A DNA stretch of 64,000 nt from Raja brachyura. Lineage: Eukaryota. Position numbers and translations under genes: made by a program. The notes under the pieces are model-generated. The model was not told where the DNA came from, did not search any database, and saw only the letters and a list, made by a program, of their open reading frames with translations. The stretch is from positions 42,160,001-42,224,000 of the forward strand of contig OY740805.1 of NCBI GenBank assembly GCA_963514005.1, in the 5' to 3' direction. Of this stretch, positions 29,576 to 63,099 are shown piece by piece (the first letter of the stretch is position 1; every line of letters begins with the position of its first letter).

Positions 29576-29579
29576 TTTC

Positions 29580-30600
29580 TTTACTACCGATTTGACTTCC
29601 AGATTAACATTTGGGGAATCCTGCACCAGCACTCCCAAGTCGCTTTGCACCTCCGATTTCTGGATTCCCTCCCCATGTGGAAATAGTCTGCATCTTTATT
29701 CCTACTACCAAAATGCATGACTCCACACTTTGCTACACTATATTGCATCTGCCACTTCTCTGCCCACTCTCCCAACCTGTCCAAGTCCTTCTGCAGAGTC
29801 ACTACTTTCTCCACACTACCTGCCCCTCCACCTATTTTCATATCATCCGCAAACTTGGCCACAAAGCCTTCTATCCCGTCGTCCAAATCAGTAATACGCA
29901 ACGTGAAGAGTAGCGGCCCCAGCACCGACCCTCACAGAACTCCGCTAGTCACTGGCAGCCAACCACAAATAGCCCCCTTTATTGCCACTCTTTGCCTTCT
30001 GCCATCCAGCCAACCTGCTATCCATGCTGGTATCTGCCCTTTGATACCATGGGCTCTCATCTTCCTGAGTAGCCTCACGTGTGGCACCTTATCAAAGGCT
30101 TTCTGAAAATCTAGATGAACAACATCTACAAACTCTCCTTTGTCTGTCCTGCTGTTTACTTCTGCAAAGTATTCCTGCAGATTCGTCAGGCAAGACCTCC
30201 CCTTCACAAAACAGCTGACTTTGACCTATTTTATCATGAACCAAGTTCTCCGTAAGCTCAGCCTTTATAATGGATTCTGAAATCTTACCAACCACCAAAG
30301 TCAGACTAACCGGCCTCTAGTTCCCAATATTCTGCTTTGCTCCCTTCTTGTGCAGCGGGGTAATATTGGCAAATTTCCAATCATCTGGAACCACTCCTGA
30401 CTCTAGTGATTCTTGAAATATCACAGATGCTATCTATGCATTAATGCGTCCACAATCTCTAAAGCAACCTCTTTCAGAACCCTGGGGTACAGTCTATCCA
30501 ATCCAGGTGACATATCCACCTTCAGCCCTTTCAGCTTCCCAGCACCTTCTCCTTCGTAATAGCCACTCCACTAACTTCCATCCCCTGATCTCTTGCATTT
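29580..30600 (-). mobile_element. CR1 ORF2 fragment (mirror copy at ~62600-63099)
   Basis: ORFs 29584-29925 and 29932-30207 (KGRSCLTNL, LDFQKAFDKVPH, KFADD). Confidence 0.88.
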
Positions 30601-30813
30601 AAGACATGTGNNNNNNNNNNNNNNNNNNNNNNNNNNNNNNNNNNNNNNNNNNNNNNNNNNNNNNNNNNNNNNNNNNNNNNNNNNNNNNNNNNNNNNNNNN
30701 NNNNNNNNNNNNNNNNNNNNNNNNNNNNNNNNNNNNNNNNNNNNACTTTATCTGCAGCCCGAGGTTATATAGACCTGAGACCCATTCCTTATCTTCAGCG
30801 ATGCTGCCTGTAT

Positions 30814-32552
30814 AGAAACATAGAAAATAGGTGCAGGAGTAGGCCATTCGGCCCTTCGAGCCTGCACCGCCATTCAATGTGATCATGGCTGATCATCCAA
30901 CTCAGTATCCCGTACCTGCCTTCTCTCCATACCCCCTGATCCCTTTAGCCACAAGTGCCACATCTAACGCCCTCTTAAATATAGCCAATGAACTGGCCTC
31001 AACTACCTTCTGTGGCAGAGAATTCCAGAGACTCACCACTCTCTGTGTAAAGAATGTTTTCCTCATTTCGGTCCTAAAGGAATTCCCCCTTATCCTTAGA
31101 CTGTGACCCCTTGTTCTGGACTCCCCCAACATCGGGAACAATCTTCCAGCATCTAGCTTGTCCAACCCCTTAAGAATTTTGTAGGTTTCTATAAGATCCC
31201 CCCTCAATCTTCTAAATTCCATCGAGTACAAACCGAGTCTATCCAATCTTTCCTCATATGAAAGTCCTGACATCCCAGGAATCAGTCTGGTGAATCTTCT
31301 CTGTACCCCCTCTATGGCAAGGATGTCTTTCCTCAGATTTGGAGACCAAAACTGTACGCAGTACTCCAGGTGTGGCCTCACCAAAACCCTGTACAACTGC
31401 AGTAGAACCTCCCTGCTCCTATACTCAAATCCTTTCGCTATGAATGCTAACATACCATTTGCTTTCTTCACTGCCTGCTGCACCTGCATGCCTACTTTCA
31501 ATGACTGGTGTACCATGACACCCAGGTCTCGTTGCATCTCCCCCTTACCTAATCTGCCACCATTCAGATAATAGTCTACCCTCATGTTTTTGCCACCAAA
31601 GTGGATAACCTCACATTTATCCACATTGTACTGCATCTGCCATGCATCTGCCCATTCACTCAGCCTATCCAAATCACCCTGCAGCCTCCAAGCATCCTCC
31701 TCACACCTAACTATACCCCCCAGCTTGGTATCATCTGCAAATTTGGAGATGTTGCATTGAATTCCCTCGTCCAAATCATTAATATATATTGTAAATAGCT
31801 GGGGTCCCAGCACTGAGCCTTGCGGCACCCCACTAGTCACTGCCTGCCATTCTGAAAAGGACCCGTTTACTCCTACCCTTTGCCTCCTGTCTGCTAGCCA
31901 GTTCTCTATCCACATCAATACTGAACCCCCAATACCGTGTGCTTTAAGTTTGTATGCTAATCTCTTATGCGGGACCTTGTCGAAAGCCTTCTGAAAGTCT
32001 AGATATAACACATCCACTGGTTCTCCCTTATCCACTCTACTAGTTACATCCTCGAAAAATTCTATCAGATTTGTCAGACATGATTTACCTTTCGTAAATC
32101 CATGCTGACTTTGTCCAATGATTTCACCACTTTCCAAATGCGCTGCTATCCCATCTTTAATAACTGACTCTAGCAGTTTCCCCACTACCGATGTTAGACT
32201 AACTGGTCTGTAATTCCCCGCTTTCTCTCTCCCTCCTTTTTTAAAAAGTGGGGTTACATTAGCTACCCTCCAATCCTCAGGAACTACTCCAGAATCTAAG
32301 GAATTTTGAAAAATTATCACTAATGCATCCACTATTTCTGTGGCTACCTCCTTGAGTACTCTGGGATGCAGACTATCTGGCCCTGGGGATTTATCGGCCT
32401 TCAATCCGTTCAATTTACCCAACACCACCTCCCGGCTAACCTGGATTTCACTCAGTTCCTCCATCTTATTTGACCCCCGTTCCACTGCTATTTCCGGCAG
32501 ATTATTTATGTCTTCCTTAGTGAAGACAGAACCAAAGTAGTTATTCAAAGTA
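30814..32552 (-). mobile_element. Young 5'-truncated CR1 with an uninterrupted RT ORF (557 aa), left arm only
   Basis: ORF 30902-32575 is stop-free through the RT domain. TSD GTAT (30810-30813 and 32553-32556). The empty site is visible in the right arm at ~62430-62450. Confidence 0.95.
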
Positions 32553-32610
32553 GTATCGCTGAGTAACTCCAGCATTTTGTGTCTGCCCTAGGTATACGGT
32601 TTACCAGCAG

Positions 32611-33015
32611 TCTGGTCGCGGCCGGGTTCAAGTGGAGTCTGGTCCCAGCCGGGTTCAAGTGGAGTCTGGTCCCAGCCGGGTTCAAGTGGAGTCTGGTCCC
32701 AGCCGGGTTCAAGTGGAGTCTGGTCCCAGCCGGGTTCAAGTGGAGTCTGGTCCCAGCCGGGTTCAAGTGGAGTCTGGTCCCAGCCGGGTTCAAGTGGAGT
32801 CTGGTCCCAGCCTGGTTCAAGTGGAGTCTGGTCCCAGCCGGATTCAAGTGGAGTCTGGTCCCAGCCGGGTTCAAGTGGAGTCTGGTCCCAGCCGGGTTCA
32901 AGTGGAGTCTGGTCCCAGCCGGGTTCAAGTGGAGTCTGGTCCCAGCCGGGTTCAAGTGGAGTCTGGTCCCAGCCGGGTTCAAGTGGAGTCTGGTCCCAGC
33001 CGGGTTCAAGTGGAG
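32611..33015. repeat. 27-bp minisatellite x15 within a CR1 ORF1 esterase remnant (x4 at 62276-62383)
   Basis: Unit CCAGCCGGGTTCAAGTGGAGTCTGGTC. The minus strand reads (LHLNPAGTR)15 after FRRDG. Confidence 0.95.
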
Positions 33016-33367
33016 TCCGTCCCGTCGGAACACTTCCCTCCTTCTCCATTACTGGGGCCAATGTCCCACAGATTCAAATCCACATCTTCCACATCAGTCT
33101 TTGATCCACGCGTTCAACTCTCTAATCCTCTCAACTCGATGCCAATTTGCTCTCGGCTCAAGTAGCAATCCAGAGATTATTACCTTCTTTGTTCTGCTGT
33201 CCAATTTGGTATCTAGCTGTTCAAATTCAGGATTGAACCCAGGTCCCTGGAGCTGTGAAGAGCTGCGTCACTGTGCCCCCCTCTCTTTGTTCCTTGCTCC
33301 CCGCTGTCATTATTTTATTTCCAATTTTAGTTGCAGTGAAAATGTGAAATATTTCTGTTTTGTGCAG

Positions 33368-33394
33368 GATACGAGGAAATGGAACGATATTATG
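33368..33394 (+). CDS. Butyrophilin cytoplasmic 27-nt mini-exon
   Basis: tttctgttttgtgcAG acceptor and GTATGT donor. 27 nt, phase 1/1, (G)YEEMERYY. Identical in the mirror copy. Confidence 0.6.
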
Positions 33395-34362
33395 GTATGT
33401 ACAGGCCGATGTACAATTCATTAAAACTATCTGGTGTGTGTTATGTCAGCTAAAGCGCAGATCATGAATGGTTCAATATAACGTAGAACAGTACATCACA
33501 AGAACAGGCCATTCGGCGCACATTATCTGTGCAGAACATGTTGCGAAGACCAGCTCTTATCTGCCTGCACATAATCCATATCCCTCCATTCCCTGTATAT
33601 CCAGGTGTCTATCTAAAATGCCACTATCGTATCTGCCTCCACCACCACCCCTGGCAGCACATCCCAGGTGCTCCCCACACTGGGAAAAACACTTGCCCCA
33701 CACAAATCCTTTAACCTTTGCCCCTCTCACCTTAAAGCTATGTCCTCGAGTCTTTGATTATTTTCACGCTGGGGAAAAAGGTTCTGACTATCCACCTGTT
33801 CTATGCCTGTCATAATTGTATCCACTTCTGCCTCAACCACCTCTTCCAACAGCTTGTTCCATATACCCACCACCCTTTGTGTAAAAGAGTTCCCTCTCTG
33901 GTACCTGTTAACTCTACTGCCTCCCCCCCCTTACTTTAATCCTATGGTTGTTGATTCCCCTACTCTGGGGACGAGACTCTGTGCGTTTCCCCGATCTATT
34001 CCTCTCACAATACTGTACACCTCTTTCTGATCACCCCTCATCCTCCTGCGCTACGAGGAATAAAGTCCTAGCCTGCTCACCCTCTCCCTATAGCTCAGGC
34101 CCTTGAGTCCTGGCAACATCCTTGTGAATCTTATCTGTACCCTTTACAGCTTGACAACGTATTTCCTATAACGTGGTGCCCAGAACTGAACACAACACTC
34201 CAAATGTGGCATCACCAACGTCTTATATATCTGCAACGTGACCTCCCAACTTCTATATTCAATACTGTGACTGATGAAGCCCAATGTGCTGAAACACTTT
34301 ATGAGCACACTATCTACCTGTGACGCCACTTTCAAGGAACTATGTTACTGCATTACATTACA

Positions 34363-37300
34363 TTTTACTTCGGAGTCACGTGAGTGACTACGTGAAGACC
34401 CCGCCAGCACGCATGCGTGACATATCGTCGAACGCATTGCGGAAGCGACAGTCGGGAGGAGCGCCGCTCCTCCAACGTAAGTTTGAAAAACCTACTGAAG
34501 GTAAGTCTTACCATTCTGGTGAGCGTGGCGACTCGGTGTTCTTTGTGTTTCAGCAATGGAGAAAGCACCATGGAGTCGAGGAAATCCAGGTGAGCAGCGG
34601 CAAAAACTGCTGCTGTGGAAAGCAGCCAGCGGCATGCCGTCTCTCCAGAGCTGCAGGTGCTGCCAGCAGCTCCCGACTTTTCACCGCAACAGACCGCAGG
34701 TGTGCCGCGGTCCGCCGGCAAAACCACCCGGAAGTCGGATGGGTCCGTTGACTCGGCTGGGTCCGGCTCTGAGGACACCCCATTCGCAGATAGCGACGGC
34801 GGGCATCTTTCCCGCATGGAGCAGTTGGTGGAGCAATTGCTCCAGCGTGACTTGCTTATGCAAGGGCAGAGTCACAGTGGGTCTCCTCGCAGACCCACGG
34901 CAGTACCCTATCAAGGACTGCCAAATGTCTCACCCTCTTTGCAGCGGAGCATTAGGGGTCAGAGCTGGGCTAACCCTGAAGAAGGGGCAATGGCTGAAGA
35001 GTCACCTGTGTCAGGGGTGCCAGAAGAGTTGTTGGGCATGGTTAATAAACATGCTGTACCAACCCAGAAAGGACTGCCTATACATCCAAAAGTGGTAGCC
35101 AGTATTAATTACATGGCTACAAACCAGCTGCAGGAGCAAGCCATAAACAACACGGCAGAGGAATACCTTGCTCCAGAGAACTGCATTTCTCTAAATGTGC
35201 CTGCAGTCAACAATCCCATCTGGGGCAACATGAGCCCATCTATAAGGAGCCAGGAGGTGAAACTCCAGAGAATCCTTAAACTGCTGGCTGCTGGTAGCAC
35301 AGCAGTAGCCAGAACAGCTGATGGTGTTGAGATGCCTGAAGAGCTACAAGACGCTCTAGCACTTCTGTGTAATACTCAATTTGAGATTAACAGTTACAGG
35401 AATAGCATCATCAAGCCTGCACTTAATCCCAATTTTGCGGGATTATGCAGGACTAGCAGCACACAGCCGCCAACTTTGCTGTTTGGGGACAACCTCCCGA
35501 AGCAGGTAAAAGACCTGGATGAGGACGCCAAGGCAATAGGCCTGATCAAGGTGCCAAACACCTCCAAAACCTATTATCAGCAGCGGCAGCACCCCTACAC
35601 ATCCACCAGACATCGTTACAATGAGAGACCATCTGGTGGTGAAAGCTCGAAGGCTTGCACAGCGGGCATTTTTAGACCATGGCCCAGTCCGGCCTTCCTG
35701 GAAAATGCGCCAACCCCACAACGCAGCAACACAATACACGAAGAAACGAGGGCAGAGACAACCCACACAACACCGGTAACCTTGGAGGTAGGTGGGTCTG
35801 GTTGTCCCAAAAACATTGCTGCCCAGATTCATCAAGGGTTGGTGGACGGTTGCACTTGTTTCATCATGTGTGGAACACTCTTACCTCTGATCCTTACATA
35901 CTCGGAAGTATTCAGGGTACTAATTGAATTTGTATACGAACTCCCCATCCCAGTTCAGCATACGCCCAGCCGAAAGTTCATATTTTCACAAAGAGAGAAC
36001 AGCAGGCCATGCTGAACTGTTAAGACTAAACGAAAATAGGGTAATTGAGAAGACAATCAGAATCTCAAGAGTTTGTATCAAATATTTTTACAAAAACAAA
36101 AAAGATGGCGGATGCCGCATCATTATAGATTTGACCGAACTAAATACTTCCGTTCAGTATGCCTATTACAAAATGGACACGTTTGTCACAGCCAATAGCT
36201 AATTTCTGATAGGTACTTCATGGCTTGCATCAATTTAAGGATGCATACTATTCAGTGCCAATACACAAGGATCATCGGAAATATCTAAAATTTGTCTGGA
36301 TGGGACAGCCTTGGCAGTATAAAGCCTTACCCATTGGGTTGTCATCGGCACCCAGGCTGCTTACAAAATTGTTAAAACCAGCTTTAGCATAATTAAGGAA
36401 GCATAACCATATTGCCATGGTTTACCTTGACGATATTCTCATTGTAGGTGAGAATTTGGAGATGGCTACATTGGCAGTATCAGCCACAAAACATCTTTTC
36501 AAAAGCTGGCATTAACATACATCCAGATAAATCAAAAAATGAAACCCTCCACTACCATGGATTATCTGGGGTTCACTATCGATTCTGTTCAAATGTCTAT
36601 TACCTTGCCACCAAACAAAGGGACAGACTTGACGGAAGCATGTAAAACCCTCACTGGCATCAGGGAACCATCCATTCTGCAAGTAGCCAGAGTGATTGAG
36701 AAACTAGTGGCTGCATTCCAGCAGCACAATTTGGACCACTCCATTGACAAAACCTGCAAAGAGCAAAAATTCTAGCTCTTAAAAATCATGCGGGCCATTT
36801 TGATAGGCCTATGAAACTATCAGAGAAGCTAAATTAGAATTATATTGGTGGATAGAAAATGCTCAGCATTGTTCTAACCCCATCACTATCATGAATCCCT
36901 CGGTTACATTACAGACTGATGCCAGTGCTGAAGGTTGGGGAGCAGCTAATACCACCACAAGTTGTGGTGGCAGATGGAGTGCACAAGAATTAACTCTGTT
37001 GGGAGCACTAGGGATTAATTATCTAGAAATGCTGGGAGCATTTCATGGACTCCGGGGCTACTGCTCAGATAAGCACCAGTTGCATGTACGGTTACAAATT
37101 AATAATACCACAGTGGTGGCCTATATTAATCATATGGGTGGAATAAAATTGATATCATGTGATGAATTGACTAATTACATCTGGCACTGGTGTCTGGATA
37201 GCGAGATTTGGATCTCAGCCACTTACCTTTCAGGTAAACTAAATACGGTGGCGGACACCAGGTCACGCAATTCATCAACAACATTGAATGGATGTTGGAT

Positions 37301-39035
37301 CGGGACCCGGGGCCAGCAGCGATGGATGTTTCTCACTGCATTGGGGGGATTGTTTTGCTATGCATTTCCCCCCTTCTGCCTCATCAGTCGGGTCTTACAA
37401 AAAATTAAACAAGACTCCGCAACGGGTATTTCGGGTTTCCCGACAGGCCTACCCAACCATGGTCCCCAGCAGTACTAAAGATGGCCGCAGAACACTGCAT
37501 TCGGATCCTCAAACGGCCGAGCCTGTTGGTACACCCTGTGACGGGTAAGTCATCCGTGCCATGATCGAATGAACCTATTGATTGCAGATTCTGAACAGGC
37601 CATTTCTGGACTACGGACTCTCCGACAGGACGATCAGTGTCATCACAGCGTCGTGCAGGGAGTCACCAGAGACAGAACTGACATTGTCAGAAGATGGGAA
37701 GTGTTCTGCATTAGAACAAACACTTCATATGACGGCCACCATCACTGAAGTGCTGGAGTTCTGGCCACCCTTCATTCCATGAAGGATTGAGCTACAGTGC
37801 CATTAATTTGCAAGGAGTGCCCTATCTAATTACCTGGCCCGAGGGAGTGTTCACCTGCCCATAGGATCACACCCACTGGTATCTAAACTGATGAGGGGTA
37901 TTAATTCTATTCCCCCAGGGCCAGATACACCCATACATGGGACTTAGGCATAGAATTTACTATGCTTCGAGGATGGACACCAATATCGGGGCTCACCCTG
38001 GATAACTAACATATAATATGGTTATGTTTATGGCTCTTGTAACAGCACAACGGGTCCAGTCCTTACTAAGCTAAGTATGGATGCCATGTGTTAACCAATG
38101 GCAGATAACCTTCCTGATACAGGGGTTACTCAAACTATATCGACCCAGTTCCTCTGGCCAAAAATTATCATTCTGGCCTACCCTGCAGTTAGTCGGCTCT
38201 GCATTGTGACATATATTTTGCGATATAGAAGGAACCAAGAATCTAGGGGCACGGAGAGGACTTTACCCATAAGCCACAAACGCCCTCATCATAAGGTCAC
38301 AGTGCAAGCCATTTCCAGTTGGCTAAGGGTGGTATTGGGTGCAGCGGGGATGGACACTGATGTTTTTAAATCTCACTCCACCAGGGCTGCATCCACGTCG
38401 GCGGCTAGGATGATGGGAGTCCCTATGGACCACATCCTTGCTACAGCGGGTTGGAGCAGTGAACGGACTTTCAGCACTTCTATTATAAACCCGTGGCCGC
38501 TCCTGAGACGTTGCAGGGGAAAATGTTAAGTTCTGTTACATGATTGACCCAATGTGGGGCATATCATTTTAGGTATGATTAAATACCTTCTTTGTTTTTC
38601 AGCACAGTGTCATGTCTGAAATACGTTCATCCTCCATCCCTAGCATGGCAGTGTGTGAGCATGGACTCGTTCCAGGGCATGAAATCACAGAGCTTTGAAA
38701 TCTTCACGTAGTCACTCACGTGACTCCGAAGTAAAATAGTAAGATTAAATGAGAACTTACCAGTTTGAAATTTGATCTTTATTTTATGAGGAGTTCCGGT
38801 GAGGGATTACGTGCCCTCCGCTCCCAAACCCTCTCTTATAAAGTTCAACTGGTATATAAAGTTCTCTCTTATCTTACTATGTTAGTCTACTCTGGTATCT
38901 GTGATTTCACACCACTGCTTTGAAGAATGTCGCGCATGCGTGCTGGCGGGGTCTTCACGTAATCCCTCATCGTAACTCCTCATAAAATAAAGATCAAACT
39001 TCAAACTGGTAAGTTCTCATTTAATCTTACTATTT
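34363..39035 (+). mobile_element. DIRS1-type tyrosine-recombinase retrotransposon, full structure, coding-degenerate
   Basis: Left ITR begins TTTTACTTCGGAGTCACGTG. gag-like ORF from 34615. RT motifs KKDGGCRIIIDL and YLDDILI (~36423). RNase H motifs TDASAEGWGA, INYLEMLG and NTTVVAYINHMGG. Methyltransferase remnant YAFPPF. YR motif HSTRAASTSAA...AGWSS. Internal complementary region at 38701-38812. Right ITR plus extension at 38928-39035, ending in TTT. Confidence 0.95.
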
Positions 39036-39945
39036 ATAAAGGCCAGCACACCAAAAGCTTTCTTTACCACCCTATCTACATGTGATTCCACCTTCAGGGA
39101 ACTATGCACAATTATTCCTAAATCCCTCTGTTCCACAGCATTCCTCAATAATACCTGTAGTCGACAGTACCCGTAGTCGACACCGAACCCGGGTCTCTGG
39201 CGCTGCTTTCGCTGTAAGGCAGCAACTCTACCGCTGCGCCACCGTGACACCCTAGTAACCCACAAAAAAGCAACACGTCCTTGAGATGTGGGGGGAAACC
39301 GGAGCTCCCAGAGAAAACCCACGTGGCCACGGGGNNNNNNNNNNNNNNNNNNNNNNNNNNNNNNNNNNNNNNNNNNNNNNNNNNNNNNNNNNNNNNNNNN
39401 NNNNNNNNNNNNNNNNNNNNNNNNNNNNNNNNNNNNNNNNNNNNNNNNNNNNNNNNNNNNNNNNNNNNNNGATTGTGCCTGGGTCTCTTGGGCTGTGAGG
39501 CAGTGTCTCCACTGCTGCACCACCCTGCTGCTCTCACAGAGAGAACAAGAGTTGTGATGTGTGGATTATTTGAGGAGGTAACTGAGATGAAGGCAGGGCT
39601 CTAGATGTGGTTTATATGGACTTTGGAAGGGGCTTTTGTGCTCGTTCTGCATGGTAGGCTGGTTCAAAAGGTTCATGGTGGGTGGACAGCTCTGTTGTTG
39701 GTGACAAAAGCAAATGTCGAGGGTGCCTGCTCAGCTCAGGCCCGGGAATGTTGTTTTAGTTTAGTTTAGCAAGTTTAGTTTATTGTCACGTGTACTGAGG
39801 TACAGTGAAAAACATATTTGTTGCGATCTAACCAGTCAGCGGACAGAATTGACATGATTATAATTGTGTCGTCCACAGTGTACAGATACAGGGTAAATGG
39901 AGTAACATTAAGTGCAAGGTAAAGTCCAATTAAAGATAGCCTGCA

Positions 39946-40508
39946 AGGGCCTGTCCCACCAGCATGCAACTCTATGCGATAAGCGCGATCAAACTAGAAG
40001 CGGGGGCCGCGCGGAGGTCGGGTGATCCCCTGTACAGGGCCGTTCCCACCAGCACGCGCCTGCATGTGGCAAGCGCAACCAAACCGGCAGCGAGGGCCGC
40101 GCGGAGGTCGGGTGAGTGGCGCAACGCGGCACAAAGTGAGGCGAACTTGGAGCGAAGTCTTAAAGGTAAGTTCGCCAGGACACAGAGGGGCACAGAGGCA
40201 CACACACACAGAGGGCCACGGAGCCACACACATGGAGGGTCACTGAGGCACTTACAAATAGGTTCACTGAGGCACGATGTCGGGGCAGCGTGTAAATGTC
40301 GAGGCGACCGCGAGCCGACAAGCCGTTGCCGCGCGGAATTTTTGAACATGGTCAGTTTTTTGGAGCCCTGCGCGGTGTCGGGACGAACTCCGCACAATTC
40401 CGCGCGGCTCCGGCGATCGAAGTGGGACCGGCCCCGCGACGCCGGACGGCTCAAGCGACCACGTTAGGTCACGCTAATCGCATAGAGTTGCATGCTGGTG
40501 GGACAGGC
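39946..40508. mobile_element. PIF/Harbinger-like MITE (mirror of 55052-55630)
   Basis: TIR AGGGCCTGTCCCACCAGCATGCAACTCTATGCGAT. The right TIR is slightly truncated in this copy. Confidence 0.85.
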
Positions 40509-40715
40509 TGAGGGTCTTCAATGAGGTGGATGGGAGGTCAGGACCGCTCTGTTGTTGGTGAGAGGACGGTTCAATTGCCTGATAGCAGCCAGTAAAGAAA
40601 CTGTCCCTGGATCTGGAGGTGTGTGTTTTCACAATTCTGTACCTCCAGCCTGATGGGAGAGGGGAGAAGAGGGAGTGACCGGGGTGAGACCGGTTCTTGA
40701 TTATCCTGTTGGCCT

Positions 40716-41185
40716 TGCTGGGGCAGCATGAAGTGTAGATGGAGTTGATGGAAGGGATATTGCATAATGGTCTGGGCTGCTGGCTTTGCTGGGGCAGTGT
40801 GAAGTGTAGATGGAAGGGATATTGCATGATGGTCTGGGCTGCTGGCCTTGCTGGGGCAGCGTGAAGTGTGGATGGAGTTGATGGAAGGGATATTGCATGA
40901 TGGTCTGGGCTGCTAGCCTTGCTGGGGCAGCATGAAGTGTAGATGGAGTTGATGGAAGGGGTATTGCATGATGGTCTGGGCTGCTGGCCTTGCTGGGGCA
41001 GTGTGAAGTGTTGATGGAAGGGATATTGCATGATGGTCTGGGCTGCTGGCCTTGCTGGGGCAGTGTGAAGTGTAGATGGAGTTGATGGAAGGGATATTGC
41101 ATAATGGTCTGGGCTGCTGGCCTTGCTGGGGCAGTGTGAAGTGTAGATGGAGTTGATGGAAGGGATATTGCATAATGGTCTGGGA
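40716..41185. repeat. ~67-bp tandem amplification inside a Rex1/L2 3' fragment (~7 units; ~3 units at 54640-54850)
   Basis: Unit GGCCTTGCTGGGGCAGTGTGAAGTGTAGATGGAGTTGATGGAAGGGATATTGCATGATGGTCTGGGCTGCT. Confidence 0.88.
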
Positions 41186-41326
41186 TGCATCCACCATTCT
41201 CTGCAGTTTCTTGCTGCCTTGGATTAAGCTGTTACCAAACCATGCTGTGATGCACAACGATAAGATGCTTCCAACGGAACATCTCTGCAAGTTGGTGAGT
41301 GTTGATGGGGACATGTGAAACCTCCT

Positions 41327-41727
41327 GGCCTGTCCCACTTGGGTGATTTCTCGGCAACTGCCGGTGACTGTCATAGTCGTAGCAGGTTGCCGAAAAACCG
41401 GCGACTGGACTAATGGGCCTGTCCCTTGGGCGATGTTTTTTAGGCGGCTGCCGGCGAATATCACATTGAAATTCGCCAAAGTCAGCACCAGCGACAACCA
41501 ACGTCACCCGGCGACACCCTACAACAGCACCTACGTCAAACTACGCTCATTTGCCGTCAAACCCAAGGTCGCCTCTGTGTCGCCGAAAAACATTCAACAT
41601 GTTGAAAATTTTTCGGTGACCAGGAAGACGCTATGACTCTTTGGGCGACTGAAGGTACAGGTGACACCCCGGCGAGCGCATAGTCTCCTGTAGTCACCTA
41701 AAAAGTGGTCTAAGTGGGACAGGCCCA
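41327..41727. mobile_element. Second Harbinger-like MITE (mirror at ~54100-54500)
   Basis: TIRs GGGCCTGTCCC(ACTT) / (AAGT)GGGACAGGCCC. The inner unit 41414-41727 is flanked by TAA/TAA. Confidence 0.75.
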
Positions 41728-41732
41728 TAAGG

Positions 41733-52504: not shown

Positions 52505-54092
52505 CATGTTGAAGCAACGACCAAGAAAGCGCACCTTGTTGAAGCAACGACCATGTTGAAGCAACGACCAAGAAAGCACACCTTGTTGAAGCAGCGACCA
52601 TGTTGAAGCAACGACCATGAAAGCACACCTTGTTGAAGCAGCGACCATGTTGAAGCAACGACCAAGAAAGCACACCTTGTTGAAGCAGCGACCATGTTGA
52701 AGCAACGACCATGAAAGCACACCTTGTTGAAGCAACGACCAAGAAAGCGCACCTTGTTGAAGCAGCGACCTTGTTGAAGCAACGACCAAGAAAGCACACC
52801 TTGTTGAAGCAGCGACCAAGAAAGCACACCTTGTTGATGCAGCGACCATGTTGAAGCAACGACCATGAAAGCACACCTTGTTGAAGCAGCGACCATGTTG
52901 AAGCAACGACCAAGAAAGCACACCTTGATGAAGCAACAACCATGTTGAAGCAACGACCATGAAAGCACACCTTGTTGAAGCAGCGACCATGTTGAAGCAA
53001 CGACCAAGAAAGCACATCTTGTTGAAGCAGCGACCATGTTGAAGCAACGACCAAGAAAGCACATCTTGTTGAAGCAGCGACCAAGAAAGCACACCTTGTT
53101 GAAGCAGCGACCATGTTGAAGCAACGACCATGAAAACACACCTTGTTGAAGCAACGACCAAGAAAGCACACCTTGTTGAAGCAGCGACCATGTTGAAGCA
53201 ACGACCATGAAAGCACACCTTGTTGAAGCATCAACCTTGTTGAAGTAACGACCAAGAAAGCGCACCTTGTTGAAGCAACGACTATGTTGAAGCAACGACC
53301 AAGAAAGCACACCTTGTTGAAGCAGCGACCATGTTGAAGCAACGACCATGAAAGCACACCTTGTTGAAGCAGTGACCATGTTGAAGCAACGACCATGAAA
53401 GCACACCTTGTTGAAGCAACGACCAAGAAAGCGCACCTTGTTGAAGCAGCGACCTTGTTGAAGCAACGACCAAGAAAGCACACCTTGTTGAAGCAGCGAC
53501 CAAGAAAGCACACCTTGTTGATGCAGCGACCATGTTGAAGCAACGACCATGAAAGCACACCTTGTTGAAGCAGTGACCTTGTTGAAGTAACGACCAAGAA
53601 AGCACACCTTGTTGAAGCAGCGACCTTGTTGAAGCAACGACCAAGAAAGCGCACCTTGTTGAAGCAGTGACCATGTTGAAGCAACGACCAAGAAAGCACA
53701 CCTTGTTGAAGCAACGACCAAGAAAGCGCACCTTGTTGAAGCAGCGACCATGTTGAAGCAACGACCATGAAAGCACACCTTGTTGAAGCAACGACCATGT
53801 TGAAGCAACGACCATGAAAGCACACCTTGTTGAAGCAGCGACCTTGTTGAAGCAACGACCAAGAAAGCACACCTTGTTGAAGCAACGACCAAGAAAGCGC
53901 ACCTTGTTGAAGCAGCGACCATGTTGAAGCAACGACCATGAAAGCACACCTTGTTGAAGCAACGACCATGTTGAAGCAACGACCATGAAAGCACACCTTG
54001 TTGAAGCAGTGACCTTGTTGAAGCAACGACCAAGAAAGCACACCTTGTTGAAGCAACGAGCATGTTGAAGCAACGACCATGAAAGCACACCT
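52505..54092. repeat. Compound 13/17-bp minisatellite, right-arm copy (~1.6 kb)
   Basis: Reverse complement of 41733-42625 with more units. Confidence 0.95.
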
Positions 54093-55051
54093 TCCTTATG
54101 GGCCTGTCCCACTTAGACCACTTTTTAGGTGACTACAGGAGACTATGCGCTCGCTGGGGTGTCACCTGTACCTTCAGTCGCCCAAAAAGTCATATCGTCT
54201 TCCTGGTCACCGAAAAATTTTCAACATGTTGAATGTTTTTCGGCGACACAGAGGCGACCTTGGGTTTGACGGCAAATGAGCGTAGTTTGACGTAGGTGCT
54301 GTTGTAGGGTGTCGCCGGGTGACGTAGGTTGTCGCTGGTGCTTACTTTGGCGGATTTCAATGTGGTATTCGCCGGCAGTCGCCTAAAAAACATCGCCCAA
54401 GGGACAGGCCCATTAGTGCAGTCGCCGGTTTTTCGGCAACCTGCTACGACTATGACAGTCACCGGCAGTTGCCGAGAAATCACCCAAGTGGGACAGGCCA
54501 GGAGGTTTCACATGTCCCCATCAACACTCACCAACTTGCAGAGACGTTCCGTTGGAAGCATCTTATCGTTGTGCATCACAGCATGGTTTGGTAACAGCTT
54601 AATCCAAGGCAGCAAGAAACTGCAGAGAATGGTGGATGCAGCCCAGACCATCATGCAATATCCCTTCCATCAACTCCATCTACACTTCACACTGCCCCAG
54701 CAAGGCCAGCAGCCCAGACCATCATGCAATATCCCTTCCATCAACTCCATCTACACTTCATGCTGCCCCGGCAAGGCCAGCAGCCCAGACCATCATGCAA
54801 TATCCCTTCCATCAACTCCATCAACACTTCACGCTGCCCCAGCAAGGCCAACAGGATAATCAAGAACCAGTCTCACCCCGGTCACTCCCTCTTCTCCCCT
54901 CTCCCATCAGGCTGGAGGTACAGAATTGTGAAAACACACACATCCATATCCAGGGACAGTTTCTTTACTGGCTGCTATCAGGCAATTGAACCGTCCTCTC
55001 ACCAACAACAGAGCGGTCCTGACCTCCCATCCACCTCATTGAAGACCCTCA

Positions 55052-55630
55052 AGGGCCTGTCCCACCAGCATGCAACTCTATGCGATTAGCGCGACCAAAC
55101 GTGGTCGCTTGAGCCGTCCGGCGTCGCGGGGCCGGTCCCACTTCGATCGCCGGAGCCGTGCGGAATTGTGCGGAGTTCGTCCCGACACCGCGCAGGGCTC
55201 CGAAAACTGACCATGTTCAAAAATTCCGCGCGGCAACGGCTTGTCGGCTCGCAGTTCCCTCGACATTTACACGCTGCCCCAACATCGTGCCTCCGTGAAC
55301 CTATTTGTAAGTGCCTCCGTGACCCTCTATGTGTGTGGCTCCGTGGCCCTCTGTGTGTGTGTGCCTCTGTGCCCCTCTCTGTGTGCCCCTCTCTGTCATG
55401 GCGAACTTACCTTTAAGACTTCGCTCCAAGTTCGCCTCACTTTGTGCCGCGTTGCGCCACTCACCCGACCTCCGCGCGGCCCTCGCTGCCGGTTTGGTTG
55501 CGCTTGCCGCATGCAGGCGCGTGCTGGTGGGAACGTCCCTGTACAGGGGATCACCCGACCTCCGCGCGGCCCCCGCTTCTAGTTTGATCGCGCTCATCGC
55601 ATAGAGTTGCATGCTGGTGGGACAGGCCCT
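55052..55630. mobile_element. PIF/Harbinger-like MITE with complete TIRs
   Basis: AGGGCCTGTCCCACCAGCATGCAACTCTATGCGAT ... ATCGCATAGAGTTGCATGCTGGTGGGACAGGCCCT. 3-bp TSD TCA (55049-55051 and 55631-55633). Confidence 0.88.
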
Positions 55631-56550
55631 TCAGGCTATCTTTAATTGGACTTTACCTTGCACTTAATGTTACTCCATTTACCCTGTATCTGTACACTGT
55701 GGACGACACAATTATAATCATGTCAATTCTGTCCGCTGACTGGTTAGATCGCAACAAATATGTTTTTCACTGTACCTCAGTACACGTGACAATAAACTAA
55801 ACTTGCTAAACTAAACTAAAACAACATTCCCGGGCCTTAGCTGAGCAGGCACCCTCGACATTTGCTTTTGTCACCAACAACAGAGCTGTCCACCCACCAT
55901 GAACCTTTTGAACCAGCCTACCATGCAGAACGAGCACAAAAGCCCCTTCCAAAGTCCATATAAACCACATCTAGAGCCCTGCCTTCATCTCAGTTACCTC
56001 CTCAAATAATCCACACATCACAACTCTTGTTCTCTCTGTGAGAGCAGCAGGGTGGTGCAGCAGTGGAGACACTGCCTCACAGCCCAAGAGACCCAGGCAC
56101 AATNNNNNNNNNNNNNNNNNNNNNNNNNNNNNNNNNNNNNNNNNNNNNNNNNNNNNNNNNNNNNNNNNNNNNNNNNNNNNNNNNNNNNNNNNNNNNNNNN
56201 NNNNNNNNNNNNNNNNNNNNNNNNNNNNNNNNNNNNNNNNNNNNNNNNNNNNNNNNNGGCCACGTGGGTTTTCTCTGGGAGCTCCGGTTTCCCCCCACAT
56301 CTCAAGGACGTGTAGCTTTTTTGTGGGTTACTAGGGTGTCACGGTGGCGCAGCAGTAGAGTTGCTGCCTTACAGCGAAAGCAGCGCCGGAGACACGGGTT
56401 CGGTGTCGACTACGGGTACTGTCGACTACAGGTATTATTGAGGAACGCTGTGGAACAGAGGGATCTAGGAATAATTGTGCATGGTTCCCTGAAGGTGGAA
56501 TCGCATGTAGATAGGGTGGTAAAGAAAGCTTTTGGTGTGCTGGCCTTTAG

Positions 56551-59500
56551 AAATAGTAAGATTAAATGAGAACTTACCAGTTTGAAGTTTGATCTTTATT
56601 TTATGAGGACGATGAGGGATTACCTGAAGACCCCGCCAGCACGCATGCGCGACATTCTTCAAAGCAGTGGTGTGAAATCACAGATACCAGAGTAGACTAA
56701 CATAGTAAGATAAGAGAGAACTTTATATACCAGTTGAACTTTATAAGAGAGGGTTTGGGAGCGGAGGGCACGTAATCCCTCATCGTAACTCCTCATAAAA
56801 TAAAGATCAAACTTCAAACTGGTAAGTTCTCATTTAATCTTACTATTTTACGTCAGAGTCACATGAGTGACTATGTGAAGATTTCAAAGCTCTGTGATTT
56901 CATGCCCTGGAACGAGTCCATGCTCACACACTGCCATGCTAGGGATGGAGGATGAACGCATTTCAGACATGACACTGTGCTGAAAAACAAAGAAGGTATT
57001 TAATCATACCTAAAATGATATGCCCCACATTGGGTAAATCATGTAACAGAACTTAACATTTTCCCCTGCAACGTCTCAGGAGCGGCCACGGGTTTATAAT
57101 AGAAGTGCTGAAAGTCCGTTCACTGCTCCAACCCGCTGTAGCAAGGATGTGGTCCATAGGGACTCCCATCATCCTAGCCGCCGACGTGGATGCAGCCCTG
57201 GTGGAGTGAGATTTAAAAACATCAGTGTCCATCCCCGCTGCACCCAATACCACCCTTAGCCAACTGGAAATGGCTTGCACTGTGACCTTATGATGAGGGC
57301 GTTTGTGGCTTGAGGGTAAAGCCCTCTCCGTGCCCCTAGATTCTTGGTTACTTCTATATCGTAAAATATATGTCACAATGCAGAGCCGACTATCTGCAGG
57401 ATAGGCCAGAATGATAATTTTTGGCCAGAGGAACTGGGTCGATATAGTTTGAGTAACCCCTGTATCAGGAAGGTTATCTTGCCATTGGTTAACACATGGC
57501 ATCCATACTTAGCTTAGTAAGGACTGGACCCGTTGTGCTGTTACAAGAGCCATAATCATAACCATATTATATGTTAGTTATCCAGGGTGAGCCCCGATAT
57601 TGGTGTCCATCCTCGAAGCATAGTAAATTCTATGCCTAAGTCCCATGTATGGGTGTATCTGGCCCTGGGGGAATAGAATTAATACCCCTCATCAGTTTAG
57701 ATACCAGTGGGTGTGATCCTATAGGCAGGTGATCACTCCCTCGGCCCAGGTAATTAGATAGGGCACTCCTTGCAAATTAATGGCACTGTAGCTCAATCCT
57801 TCATGGAATGAAGGGTGGCCAGAACTCCAGCACTTCAGTGATGGTGGCCGTTGCGGAGTCTTATTTAATTTTTTGTAAGACCCCACTGATGAGGCAGAAG
57901 GGGGGAAATGCATAGCAAAACAATCCCCCCAATGCAGCGAGAAGCATCCATCGCTGCTGGCCCCGGGTCCCGATCCAACATCCATTCAATGTTGTCGTTG
58001 AATTGCGTGACCTGGTGTCCGTCACCGTATTTAGTTTACCTGGAAGGTAAGTAGCTGAGATCCAAATCTCTCTATCCAGACACCAGTGCCAGATGTAATT
58101 AGCCAATTCATCACATGATATCGATTTTATTCCACCCATATGATTAATATATGCCACCACTGTGATATTATTAATTTGTAACCGTACATGCAACTGGTGC
58201 ATATCTAAGCAGTAGGCCCGGAGTCCATGAAATGCTCCCAGCATTTCTAGATAGTTAATCCCTAGTGCTCCCAACAGGGTTAAATCTTGTGCACTCCATC
58301 TGCCACCACAACTGGTGGTGGTATTAGCTGCTCCCCAATCTTCAGCACTGGCATCAGTCTGTAATGTAACCGAGGGATTCATGATAGTGATGGGGTTAGA
58401 ACAATGCTGAGCATTTTCTATCCACCAATATAATTCTAATTTAGCTTCTCTGGTAGTTTCATAGGCCTATCAAAATGGCCCGCATGATTTTTAAGAGCTA
58501 GAATGTTTGCTCTTTGCAGGTTTTGTTAATGGAGTGGTCCAAATTGTGCTGCTGGAATGCAGCCACTAGTTTCTCAATCACTCTGGCTACTTGCAGAATG
58601 GATGGTTCCCTGATGCCAGTGAGGGTTTTACATGCTTCCGTCAAGTCTGTCCCTTTAGTTGGTGGCAAGGTGATAGACATTTGAACAGAATCGATAGTGA
58701 ACCCCAGATAATCCATGGTAGTGGAGGGTTTCATTTTTTTAATCTATCTGGATGTATGTTAATCCCAGCTTTTGAAAACATGTTTTGTGGCTGATACTGC
58801 CAATGTAGCCATCTCCAAATTCTCACCTACAATGAGAATATCGTCAAGGTAAACCATGGCAATATGGTTATGTTTCCTTAATTATGCTAAAGCTGGTTTT
58901 AACAATTTGTAAGCAGTCTGGGTGCCGATGACAACCCAATGGGTAAGGCTTTATGCTGCCAAGGCTGTCCCATCCAGACAAATTTTAGACATTTCCGATG
59001 ATCCTAGTGTATTGGCAATGAACAGTATGCATCCTTAAATTGATGTAAGCCATGAAGTACCTATCAGAAATTAGCTATTGGCTGTGAAAAACGTGTCCAT
59101 TTTGAAATAGGCATACTGAATGGAAGTATTTAGTTCGGTCAAATCTATAATGATGCGGCATCCGCCATCTTTTTTGTTTTTGTAAAAATATTTGATACGA
59201 ACTCTTGAGATTCTGATTGTCTTCTCAATTACCCTATTTTCGTTTAGTCTTAACAGTTCAGCATGGCCTGCTGTTCTCTCTTTTGTGAAAATATGAACTT
59301 TCGGCTGGGCGTATGCTGAACTGGGATGGGGAGTTCGTATACAAATTCAATTAGTACCCTGAATACTTCCGAGTATGTAAGGATTAGAGGTAAGAGTGTT
59401 CCACACATGATGAAACAAGTGCAACCGTCCACCAACCCTTGATGAATCTAGGCAGCAAAGTTTTTGGGACAACCAGACCCACCTACCTCCAAGGTTACCG

Positions 59501-60918
59501 GTGTTGTGTGGGTTGTCTCTGTCCTTGTTTATTCGTGTATTGTTTTGCTGTGTTGTGGGGTTGGCGCATTTTCCAAGAAGGCCGGGCAGGGCCATGGTCT
59601 AAAAAAGACCGCTGTGCAGGTGGGCCGGCCTTCGAGCTTTCACCACCAGATGGTCTTTTGTTGTAACAAAGTCTGGTGGATGTGTAGGGGTGCTGCCGCT
59701 GCTGATAATGGGTTTTGGAGGTGTTTGGCACCTTGATCAGGCCTATTGCCTTGGCGTCCTCATCCAGGTCTTTTACCTGCTTCGGGAGGTTGTCCCCAAA
59801 CAGCAAAGTTGGCGGCTGTGTGCTGCTAGTCCTGCATAATCCCGCAAAATTGGGATTAATGCAGACTTGATGATGCTATTCCTGTAACTGTTAATCTCAA
59901 ATTGAGTATTACACAGAAGTGCTAGAGCGTCTTGTAGCTCTTCAGGCATCTCAACCCCATCAGCTGTTCTGGCTACTGCTGTGCTACCAGCAGCCAGCAG
60001 TTTAAGGATTCTCTGGAGTTTCATCTCCTGGCTCCTTATAGATGGGCTCATGTTGCCCCAGATGGGGTTGTTGACTGCAGGCACATTTAGAGAAATGCAG
60101 TTCTCTGGAGCAAGGTATTTCTCTGCCGTGTTGTTTATGGCTTGCTCCTGCAGCTGGTTTGTAGCCATGTAATTAATACTGGCTACCAGTTTTGGATGTA
60201 TAGGCAGTCCTTTCTGGGTTGGTACAGCATGTTTATTAACCATGCCCAACAACTCTTCTGGCACCCCTGACACAGGTGACTCTTCAGCCATTGCCCCTTC
60301 TTCAGGGTCAGCCCAGCTCTGACCCCTAATGCTCCCCTGCGAAGAGGGTGAGACATTTGGCAGTCCTTGATAGGGTACTGCCGTGGGTCTGCGAGGAGAC
60401 CCACTGTGACTCTGCCCCTGCATAAGCAGGTCACGCTGGAGCAATTGCTCCACCAACTGCTCCATGCGGGAAAGACGCCCGCCGTCGCTATCTGCGAATG
60501 AGGTGTCCTCAGGTCCGGACCCAGCCGAGTCAACGGACCTGTCCGACTTCCGGGTGGTTTTGCCGGCGGACCGCGGCACACCTGCGGTCTGTTGCGGCGA
60601 GAAGTCGGGAGCTGCTGGCAGCACCTGCAGCTCTGGAGAGACGGCATGCCGCTGGCTGCTTTCCACAGCAGCGGTTTTTGCCGCTGCTCTCCTGGATTTC
60701 CTCGACTCCATGGTGCTTTCTCCATTGCTGAAACACAAAGAACACCGAGTCGCCACGCTCACCAGAATGGTAAGACTTACCTTCGGTAGGTTTTTCAAAC
60801 TTACGTTGGAGGAGCGGCGCTCCTCCCGACTGTCGCTTCCGCAATGCGTTCGACGATATGTCGCGCATGCGTGCTGGCGGGGTCTTCACGTAGTCACTCA
60901 CGTGACTCCGAAGTAAAA
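56551..60918 (-). mobile_element. DIRS1-type retrotransposon, right-arm copy with a ~310-bp internal deletion
   Basis: Same ITR/ICR architecture, flanks and frameshifts as 34363-39035. The deletion at ~57850 lies between ACGG microhomologies (left-copy 37422-37735). Confidence 0.95.
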
Positions 60919-61897
60919 TGTAATGTAGGAGTGCAGTAACATAGTTCCTTGAAAGTGGCGTCACAGGTAGATAGTGTGCTCATAAAGCGTTTCAGCACGT
61001 TGGCCTTCATCAGTCACAGTATTGAGTATAGAAGTTGGGAGGTCACGTTGCGGATATATAAGACGTTGGTGATGCCACATTTGGAGTGTTGTGTTCAGTT
61101 CTGGCACCACGTTATAGGAAATACGTTGTCAAGCTGTAAAGGGTACAGATAAGATTCACGAGGATGTTGCCAGGACTCAAGGGCCTGAGCTATAGGGAGA
61201 GGGTGAGCAGGCTAGGACTTTATTCCTCGTAGCGCAGGAGGATGAGGGGTGATCAGAAAGAGGTGTACAGTATTGTGAGAGGAATAGATCGGGTAAACGC
61301 ACAGAGTCTCGTCCCCAGAGTAGGGGAATCAACAATCATAGGATTAAAGTAAGGGGGGGGGGGGGGGGGTAGGAGTAGAGTTAACAGGAACCAGAGAGGG
61401 AACTCTTTTACACAAAGGGTGGTGGGTATATGGAACAAGCTGTTGGAAGAGGTGGTTGAGGCAGAAGTGGATACAATTATGACAGGCATAGAACAGGTGG
61501 ATAGTCAGAACCTTTTTCCCCAGGGTGAAAATAATCAAAGACTCGAGGACATAGCTTTCAGGTGAGAGGGGCAAAGGTTAAAGGATTTGTGCGGGACAAG
61601 TGTTTTTCCCAGTGCGGGGAGCACCTGGAATGTGCTGCCAGGGGTGGTGGTGGAGGGAGATACGATAGTGGCATTTTAGATAGACACCTGGATATACAGG
61701 GAATGGAGGGATATGGATTATGTGCAGGCAGATAAGAGCTGGTCTTCGCAACATTTTCTGTACAGATATTGTGGGCCGAATGGCCTGTTCTTGTGATGTA
61801 CTGTTCTACGTTATATTGAACCATTCATGATCTGCGCTTTAGCTGACATAACACACACCAGATAGTTTTACTGAATTGTACATCGGCCTGTACTTAC

Positions 61898-61924
61898 CAT
61901 AATATCGTTCCATTTCCTCGTATC
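61898..61924 (-). CDS. Butyrophilin 27-nt mini-exon, right-arm paralog
   Basis: Identical 27 nt to 33368-33394. gtgcAG acceptor and consensus GTAAGT donor. Confidence 0.6.
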
Positions 61925-63099
61925 CTGCACAAAACAGAAATATTTCACATTTTCACTGCAACTAAAATTGGAAATAAAATAATGACAGCGGGAGCAAGGA
62001 ACAAAGAGAGGGGGGCACAGTGACGCAGCTCTTCACAGCTACAGGGACCTGGGTTCAATCCTGAATTTGAACAGCTAGATACCAAATTGTACAGCAGAAC
62101 CAAGAAGGTAATAATCTCTGGATTGCTGCTTGAGCCGAGAGCAAATTAGCACAGAGTTGAGAGGATTAGAGAGTTGAACGCGTGGATCAAAGACTGAAGT
62201 GGAAGGTGTGGATTTGAATCTGTGGGACATTGGCCCCAGTATTGGGGAAGGAGGGAAGTGTTCCGACGGGATGGACTTCACTTGAACCCGGCTGGGACCA
62301 GACTCCACTTGAACCCGGCTGGGACCAGACTCTACTTGAACCCGGCTGGGACCAGACTCCACTTGAACCCGGCCGCGACCAGACTGCTGGTAAACCGTAT
62401 AACTAGGGCAGACACAAAATGCTGGAGTTACTCAGCGATACAGGCAGCATCGCTGAAGATAAAGAATGGGTCTCAGGTCGATATAACTAGGGCAGCAGAT
62501 AAAGTAAACGTACGTGTACGTGTGTGTGTGTGTGTGTACGTGTGTGTACGTGTACGTGTGTGTGTGTGTGTGTGTGTGCCTTCTTCACAGTAGAAGACAC
62601 ATGTCTTAAATGCAAGAGATCAGGGGATGGAAGTTAGTGGAGTGGCTATTACGAAGGAGAAGGTGCTTGGGAAGCTGAAATGGCTGAAGGTGGATACGTC
62701 ACCTGGATTGGATAGACTGTACCCCAGGGTTCTGAAAGAGGTGGCTTTAGAGATTGTGGACGCATTAATGCATAGATAGCATCTGTGATATTTCAAGCAT
62801 CACTAGAGTCAGGAGTGGTTCCAGATGATTGGAAATTTGCCAATATTACCCCGCTGTACAAGAAGGGAGCAAAGCAGAATATTGGGAACTAGAGGCCGGT
62901 TAGTCTGACTTTGGTAGTTGGTAAGATTTCAGAATCCATTATAAAGGCTGAGATTACGGAGAACTTGGTTCATGATAAAATAGGTCAAAGTCAGCACTGT
63001 TTTGTGAAGGGGAGATCTTGCCTGACGAATCTGCAGGAATACTTTGCAGAAGTAAACAGCAGGACAGACAAAGGAGAGTTTGTAGATGTTGTTTATCTA

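Follow-up and report, generated by a model that had tools for sequence, protein, structure and literature searches.

The window, a 64,000-nucleotide stretch of the Raja brachyura assembly (contig C25), lies across two copies of a duplicated block of ~45 kb, which are 97% identical and each carry a broken butyrophilin (BTN) gene, and the mirror layout in which they appear probably reflects an error in assembling an ordinary duplication. The two arms, the broken genes, a split CKK-domain gene between the arms and the locations of the orphan halves of that gene are established; both the apparent spacer of 6.6 kb and the inverted order of the arms depend on a join over a probable scaffold gap. This is an ordinary duplication cluster, with its orientation given only as assembled. 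Our preferred explanation, which we hold tentatively, is that the arms are real direct tandem copies and that a 118-kb block (-68029..50093; negative positions lie to the left of the window) was scaffolded backwards between two gaps.

Table 1 Features of the window and of the mirrored arms, in window positions
Feature	Position	Strand	Basis or remark
Left arm of duplicated block	2524..44240	+	Self-BLAST with flanks, chained alignment
Right arm	50891..64000 in window; on to about 96,650 (G000:C25 ~42.257 Mb)	-	Self-BLAST with flanks, chained alignment
Mirrored block in window	30112-30610/63099-62598		97.6%
Mirrored block in window	32906-37425/62385-57848		96.6%
Mirrored block in window	37732-39328/57851-56258		97.8%
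Mirrored block in window	39472-40913/56103-54638		96.1%
Mirrored block in window	41764-44240/53425-50891		93.6%
Butyrophilin IgV exon, open frame	15048..15395	+	Pfam V-set, E 3.6e-13
Butyrophilin IgC exon, broken	17257..17530	+	11-bp deletion, conserved Cys lost
Butyrophilin transmembrane exon, open	18347..18466	+	tblastn
Identical tract, 1,557 bp	22265..23821	.	Likely conversion or recombination
First heptad exon, 27 bp	23513..23539	+
Second heptad exon (mini-exon), 27 bp, left copy	33368..33394	+
Second heptad exon, right copy	61898..61924	-
CR1-type LINE piece, left arm only	30812..32548	-	RVT_1; arm indel
Decayed DIRS retrotransposon	34366..38700 (right end approximate)	+
DIRS mirror copy	56900..60915 (left end approximate)	-
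Left-side-only DNA, SINE/LINE pieces	44241..46684	.	Part of apparent spacer
CKK-gene upstream region	46685..47229	+	Mirrored at 77% by 50313-50894
5' part of large CKK-gene coding exon	48987..50093 (start predicted)	+	tblastn
200-N run, probable scaffold gap	50094..50293	.
Upstream region of second CKK-gene copy, body absent here	50294..50894	-
LINE insertion, presumably Rex1-type, right arm only	63100..64000, ends about 64,512	+	RVT_1 plus ALKBH8_N (Pfam)

Self-BLAST with flanks showed that the mirror, which a preliminary description had put at 33 kb or more, is present in the assembled sequence and is larger, with arms of ~42 and ~46 kb and a whole span of ~94 kb. In the chained alignment, the arms were 97.1% identical (1,026 substitutions over 35,451 columns) and differed by six arm-specific indels of 1–5.3 kb each, and one of the arm-specific insertions is a DIRS element at 67.9–73.3 kb; at 33361-33740, where about 12 mismatches had been noticed, we counted exactly 12 substitutions. 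The outer match is interrupted, as described, by an element that we take to be Rex1, following the name first given to it; this right-arm insertion measures ~1.4 kb, and the match restarts at 64513 and reaches 2524/96652. Segmental duplications are copies longer than 1 kb with more than 90% identity, the thresholds applied here, and the arms are long high-identity copies that include introns and non-transposon DNA, which supports the proposed segmental duplication inside a growing butyrophilin cluster. The cluster sits on the MHC class I chromosome.

Exons for the IgV, IgC and transmembrane parts of a skate butyrophilin, together with two heptad exons, lie in each arm. The IgV exon matched named skate BTN proteins at 81–91% and was free of stops in tblastn; its mirror copy lies at about 84,635-84,983, beyond the window. 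The second heptad exon is common to both arms on opposite strands, in agreement with the preliminary description. The right-arm IgC copy carries a separate 7-bp deletion, unlike the 11-bp deletion of the left arm. No leader exon was detected in either arm with eight leader queries, and in tblastn the stretch from one transmembrane exon to the other was free of B30.2 exons, with the closest at -3.8 kb and 107.6 kb; the earlier observation that the converging genes lack B30.2 between their mini-exons thus holds. With regard to BTN/BTNL membership, the IgV, IgC, transmembrane and heptad exons are homologous to BTN; an intact frame and a leader are lacking, and B30.2, which is usual but not universal in BTN/BTNL, is absent from both arm copies. 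As neither a leader nor a B30.2 exon turned up and the IgC frameshifts differ, both copies are pseudogene fragments. The suggestion that the duplication drives immune-gene copy number did not stand, and a dosage gain from these copies is unsupported because both are leaderless, B30.2-less and IgC-frameshifted.

The DIRS element noticed earlier is also common to both arms, each of which holds gag, RT/RNase H/methyltransferase and tyrosine recombinase pieces in this order. The pieces matched C5 frames at 40–63% by tblastn, and the RT/MT and recombinase frames matched Pfam RVT_1, Dam and Phage_integrase (the Pfam scan covered 93 of 310 candidate ORFs from C5 and C2 blocks, plus two window frames). 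The left end of the element (34366) is the point where the arm departs from a B30.2-bearing paralog, ~1 kb ahead of the B30.2 exon of that paralog.

The spacer contains a 200-N run and a coding exon cut off by it, both of which the preliminary description had missed. The exon, identified only via an exon lying downstream in a C5 copy, matches residues 132-174 of the ray CKK protein P0051 (tblastn, E 2.8e-6), carries a 39-bp/13-aa repeat and has a frame that is open right into the Ns. For the exon itself, Pfam gave no match and the ESM Atlas no usable match; Pfam CAMSAP_CKK (PF08683) was found on the ray homologues P0051-53. The spacer copy is missing residues ~620-1053 of P0051, a 3' half that occupies 6.2 kb on the unplaced contig C151, and at least 6.2 kb of the 3' half of the gene is missing at the spacer. 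The window contains only the N-terminal exon part; the CKK domain sits in orphan 3' halves and in the ray homologues. On C25, the domain occurs only at -72 kb (-) and -66 kb (+), flanking another 200-N run, and none was found on C25 rightward of the window. That run is the centre of a second mirror, 92–98% identical, 118 kb leftward. The four orphan 3' halves, which differ in sequence, lie at this second mirror and at both ends of C151. In the assembled order, a CKK 5' half lies on each side of one gap, facing its counterpart, and the other gap is flanked in the same way by 3' halves.

A run of 200 Ns is the conventional size of a scaffold gap. Outside the window, four N runs were found, each exactly 200 long, and three of them fall in or at CKK-gene copies; the other five runs of the window are 134–166 long. 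The run in the spacer is probably a scaffold gap, although it is directly indistinguishable from a mask. The CKK gene is whole in three rays, and gap-free C5 copies hold the 5' part, the 39-bp repeat and the 3' part on a single strand, with such units head to tail at C5:32.69-32.75 Mb. Other CKK loci number three (C10, C35 and C38), and this CAMSAP-like gene represents a fourth, multicopy type. In its ray homologues the CKK domain is terminal, as in CAMSAP/Patronin CKK genes (PF08683); unlike these genes, the spacer gene has a 13-aa repeat, and Pfam found no other CAMSAP domain in the homologues.

Flipping the block -68029..50093 would make both joins 5'-to-3' and both mirrors direct tandem copies. 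The distances between copies, the independent IgC lesions and the six kilobase indels fit paralogs. In such a history, a rearrangement at the DIRS insertion would have stripped an ancestral butyrophilin copy of its B30.2 exon and placed the B30.2-less gene upstream of the CKK gene; duplication of this unit would have followed, after which the two IgC exons would have decayed independently, transposons would have entered individual copies, and the paralogs would have become mosaic through unequal exchange with one another. Contigs may have broken in the CKK gene, which is GC-rich and full of repeats, and contig ends that are homologous may have been joined to each other, giving two gap-centred mirrors. 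Against the flip, C151, which has a CKK 3' half at either end, is just as good a fit to the gap and would stay unplaced, the mosaic of the left arm would also be expected from a deletion haplotype, and real inversions exist inside gap-free stretches of the cluster. If the block is indeed reversed, the outcome is a curation fix: turning the 118-kb block (or placing C151) would restore the split CKK gene, and the apparent number and orientation of butyrophilins on the skate MHC chromosome would change. Mirrors centred on N runs should accordingly not be taken for palindromes. Birth and death of BTN copies and mosaic paralogs are a known kind of biology.

The transmembrane block differed by 1.8–2.6% among all six copies and by 2.1% between the arms, and gap-free duplicates in the same cluster are 92–98.7% alike. 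In the blocks at 22–34 kb, the arms are sister copies (support 0.95–1.0). The left arm is a mosaic, with an inner part nearest the right arm and an outer part 0.7–1.8% from a copy at 221–258 kb. A false duplication, in which the 118-kb block would come from the second parental haplotype and correspond to the start of the 306-kb right block as a shorter, deletion-type allele kept and scaffolded next to it over a gap, is in our view unlikely. Falsely joined haplotypes, which the preliminary description had itself considered, are a live reading because the join crosses a probable gap that splits the CKK gene. Such a gap between copies resembles the heterotype false duplications of bioRxiv 2020.05.22.110833. 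Once reversed, the block agrees with the right block at its start (47 kb) and also at its end (-59..-42 kb versus 343–356 kb, 95.7–98%), the mosaic is as expected from unequal crossing-over between direct repeats at 76–94 and 221–247 kb, removing the block likewise yields a 5'-to-3' CKK join, and exactly two copies of the DNA at 39480-39940 are present among the matches listed. However, 2.9% substitutions over 35 kb and six kilobase indels are far beyond the genome-wide heterozygosity of 0.1–1.6% that the same source gives for VGP species; a caveat to the divergence argument is that false duplications favour divergent regions. In addition, the -41..-4 kb part is without counterpart in the right block, and some copies must be paralogs because C151 adds a collinear copy over ~100 kb.

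Also unlikely is a truly inverted arrangement in which C151 (121.5 kb, gap-free, with intact B30.2 exons and an inverted-repeat structure of its own) fills the gap, so that the whole would form a nested inverted structure of ~220 kb with a spacer far longer than assembled. This contig comes from the cluster, its CKK 3' halves point inward at both ends, and its right end begins ~280 bp past the 39-bp repeat of a gap-free C5 copy (97% identity); two CKK 5' ends face the gap. However, two 3' halves would still face each other at the -68 kb gap, no further CKK 5' halves were found in the assembly (five strong matches among 12, one on C25), and C151 could be an allele of the 118-kb block, with which it is collinear. 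True inversion would mean nested inverted repeats outside the sex chromosomes, in an immune cluster and bounded by a recurring gene cassette, with an inversion polymorphism testable at the cluster. It is more doubtful still that the CKK gene, expanded in the skate, marks the edges of butyrophilin duplication units like a core duplicon, C151 in the gap completing a ~220-kb nested inverted repeat, and that the cassette carried B30.2 exons to C5 (related pieces on C2 and C11).

That the palindrome is real as assembled, with its 6.6-kb spacer and a fold-back junction inside the CKK gene under the Ns, is improbable. Inversion is common in this cluster, since true inverted duplications exist in gap-free stretches (C151; -36..-17 versus 9–29 kb; 106–155 versus 256–350 kb), and both the sister relationship of the arms and the single 1,557-base identical tract, expected 1e-17 times by chance, are in its favour. 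A real palindrome would nevertheless require two CKK copies cut exactly where contigs break elsewhere, no complete copy would be left of a gene found whole in three rays, and the outer left arm is nearer a third copy than the right arm. Judged by PMC8327919, which describes palindromes with arms longer than 8 kb and above 99% identity, the skate arms are long and inverted in the assembly only and fall short at 97.1%. The predicted arm-to-arm conversion finds support in the one identical tract, which looks like a conversion tract; a palindrome maintained by conversion is unsupported because the arms, with large indels, are no more alike than other paralogs. Long dsRNA from convergent transcription, also suggested earlier, would need a real inversion and transcription of the arms. 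The idea that the spacer is foreign DNA imported from C5 in place of B30.2 was rejected because the C5 copies carry BTN-derived B30.2 pseudo-exons and cluster DNA, and a Narcine homologue apparently shares a contig with Narcine BTN genes.

Of the 22 sequencing runs listed, the best contains 0.53 of the sampled words; no RNA run is among them, a result that carries no information on expression. Among short-read contigs of four runs over 32500-52400, none spanned the spacer. Contig depths for arm-shared versus left-only or spacer DNA, which are uncalibrated and do not represent copy number, were 33–60 versus 10.5–13 in run X1, 15–25 versus 13–16 in X5 and 186–359 versus 209–335 in X2; they disagree between runs, lack a single-copy calibration and were not used in the conclusions. 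Sites that differ between the arms showed a single letter per run: at 39272, X1, X2 and X5 carry the right-arm letter; at 41671, X1 and X6 have the left-arm letter and X2 has the right-arm one. In X1 and X2 there are also letters absent from both arms. These two runs may come from other species or haplotypes than the assembled animal and are therefore no test of fixed paralog variants.

A partial literature search, limited to main texts, found no report of a skate BTN cluster or of a link between CKK and BTN genes. The mirror resembles the primate sex-chromosome palindromes of PMC8327919 in its >8-kb arms around a spacer and its one tract of perfect identity; unlike them (>99%), the skate arms are 97.1% identical, have kilobase indels and no intact arm gene, and owe their orientation to the assembly only. 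Near-identical neighbours, a probable gap between them and a repeat-rich skate genome recall heterotype false duplications and mis-oriented contigs (bioRxiv 2020.05.22.110833); those are defined by read depth and k-mers, whereas the skate cluster has gap-free paralogs of equal divergence. The human BTNL8/BTNL3 duplication with its 56-kb deletion CNV (PMC3729544) and lineage-specific BTN duplication (PMC12841164) share with the skate cluster paralogous BTN blocks, hybrid copies of the unequal-exchange type and a place on the MHC class I chromosome. Unlike the clusters described there, the skate copies are leaderless, frameshifted fragments, and the skate cluster has inverted as well as direct repeats.

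The preliminary description proposed a palindrome of at least 33 kb placing two butyrophilin (BTN) 3′ regions tail to tail, and the mirror order of its arms is present in the assembled sequence, extending, with flanking DNA, from 2524 to 96,652 (window coordinates, continued past both ends). The window occupies 42,160,001-42,224,000 of the scaffold C25 in a 2.7-Gb genome, and the analysis covered 724 kb of C25, the unplaced contig C151 in full (121.5 kb), and a total of 260 kb on the sequences C5, C2, and C11. A chained alignment of the arms gave 1,026 substitutions in 35,451 columns (97.1% identity), with exactly 12 at 33361-33740, where about 12 mismatches had been reported. Six arm-specific indels of at least 1 kb were found, left-only (2,219, 2,295, and 2,444 bp) or right-only (1,038, 1,416, and 5,329 bp), the largest being a second DIRS element. 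The arms are sister copies over 22-34 kb, and 22265-23821 contains 1,557 bases without any arm difference (chance expectation, 1e-17 occurrences), which suggests conversion or recombination. Between -2 and 12 kb, the left arm differs by 0.7-1.8% from a third copy (221-258 kb) and by 3-8% from the right arm. A left-only CR1 piece (30812-32548) has near-identical counterparts (99.8-99.9%) at 328.3-330.1 kb and at C151:73.7-75.2 kb, which points to a very recent insertion or conversion.

Each arm carries IgV, IgC, transmembrane, and two 27-bp heptad exons. No leader exon was detected in either arm (the leader that matches is at -10.2 kb, on the other strand), and the reported absence of B30.2 was borne out, with no such exon between the two transmembrane exons. 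In the left-arm IgC, 11 bp are deleted and a conserved cysteine is gone, and the right-arm IgC has a distinct 7-bp deletion; the paralog's intact exon measures 285 bp. Because leader and B30.2 are missing and the IgC deletions differ, both copies are pseudogene fragments, with a common B30.2 loss followed by separate decay. Similarity between the arm and C151's B30.2-bearing paralog stops at the DIRS left end, approximately 1 kb before the B30.2 exon, and does not resume. At the left mini-exon donor (33398), the +4 base is unlike that of the right copy and of every other paralog. An IgC fragment split by a CR1 piece (14802-14879 and 13338-13385, mirrored at ~85.1-85.2 kb) just ahead of the IgV exon is what remains of a tandem V-C duplication.

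BTN exons recorded at the left of the window
Feature	Position	Strand
Open BTN IgC exon	314-814	-
Orphan transmembrane exon, second BTN type	7509-7631	+
Frameshifted BTN IgV exon	9320-9654	+

The spacer between the arms is not inert. The sequence at 48890-49400 recurs four more times, in three places on C5 and one on C2. Three ray proteins, all ending in a CAMSAP_CKK domain, match the exon that follows the 39-bp repeat in one C5 copy; they map back onto the window exon (residues 132-174 of the homologue P0051, E 2.8e-6), whose translated frame stays open as far as the Ns at 50094. Where C5 copies are free of gaps, the parts of this CKK gene are consecutive on one strand, and units stand head to tail at C5:32.69-32.75 Mb. 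C25 has the CKK domain at just two places, -72 kb (- strand) and -66 kb (+ strand), and none right of the window. Genome-wide, we found CKK loci on C10, C35, and C38, which are likely ordinary CAMSAPs, plus this fourth, multicopy gene, of which no complete copy was present in the stretches examined. Dispersed cassette copies lie at C5:32.69-32.75, C5:0.10-0.13, C5:32.44, C2:28.85, C2:58.66, and C11:30.23 Mb. Three C5 copies contain BTN-type B30.2 pseudo-exons with one stop codon in common; these cassettes are an interchromosomal duplication out of the BTN cluster.

The first sequence right of the Ns is upstream DNA of another CKK-gene copy, in reverse orientation. The spacer N run is 200 long, and the window's other five are 134-166. 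All four N runs outside the window in the fetched DNA are exactly 200 long, a common gap size, and three lie in or at CKK-gene copies (-68 kb, C5:32.44 Mb, and C11:30.23 Mb). We infer that the 200-N runs are scaffold gaps at contig breaks in the GC-rich, repeat-filled CKK gene, mask and gap looking alike. The run at -68 kb, which has GGGTT-rich intron repeats and CKK last exons on its flanks, sits in the middle of a second mirror (~-92,300 to -40,300, 92-98%). In the scaffold as built, one gap lies between two CKK 5′ halves and the other between two 3′ halves.

The palindrome is very probably not of its assembled size, and we consider it rather probable that it is not inverted at all. Our leading, still tentative, reading is that the 118-kb block between these gaps (-68029..50093) may be reversed in the scaffold, both mirrors really being direct tandem copies. 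Flipping it would make both joins 5′-to-3′, complete the CKK gene, and turn both mirrors into direct tandem copies. It is unlikely that the block is instead the other haplotype, carrying a deletion-type allele of its right-hand neighbour. Such false duplications sit across gaps (bioRxiv 2020.05.22.110833), and the mosaic left arm agrees with this, but a divergence of 2.9% plus six large indels is high, and C151 adds one more collinear copy (over ~100 kb of the block). C151:1-121536 is gap-free and itself an inverted repeat (3.1-45.5 kb versus 68.9-116.3 kb, 90-98.7%), with outward-pointing BTN genes that have B30.2 exons. Doubtful, too, is that C151 fills the gap, with the arms truly inverted around >120 kb; it carries a CKK domain and 3′ half (spanning 6.2 kb) at both ends, and its right end begins ~280 bp past the 39-bp repeat of the C5 copy, but the -68 kb join is left unexplained. 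A palindrome real as assembled is highly improbable. Among short-read contigs from four sequencing runs compared with 32500-52400, none spanned the spacer. The mirror described earlier is observed in the assembly, but its interpretation is only partly supported, given a probable gap and a split CKK gene in the spacer.

The region is an ordinary birth-and-death butyrophilin cluster. The 524 kb around the arms contains many more BTN exon sets, complete and broken, in both orientations; gap-free duplicates, direct and inverted, are 92-98.7% alike, and the transmembrane block differs by 1.8-2.6% among all six copies. The structure works like human BTN segmental duplications (PMC3729544). Primate palindromes are defined by >99% identity (PMC8327919), above the 97.1% of the skate arms. 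Named butyrophilins from Amblyraja, Rhinoraja, and Leucoraja share 81-91% identity with the window IgV exon, which marks the animal as a skate. The same scaffold has MHC class I matches at 18-24 Mb, consistent with the BTN-MHC linkage reported in several cartilaginous fishes (PMC12841164). Contigs of only 104-263 kb are listed for three Leucoraja BTN proteins, and a thorny skate assembly was excluded from an MHC study because key genes had no placement (PMC10751288); both agree with a hard-to-assemble region. A partial literature search found nothing on this skate BTN cluster or the multicopy CKK gene. In two copies (C25 -25,882..-25,532 and C151:78,408-78,758), the IgV exon is inverted relative to its own IgC exon, a local inversion of ~1.6 kb. 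Farther along C25, a 43-kb satellite (285,300-328,400) occupies the intron preceding a B30.2 exon. From 356,529, after the third 200-N run, there is a 22-bp satellite.
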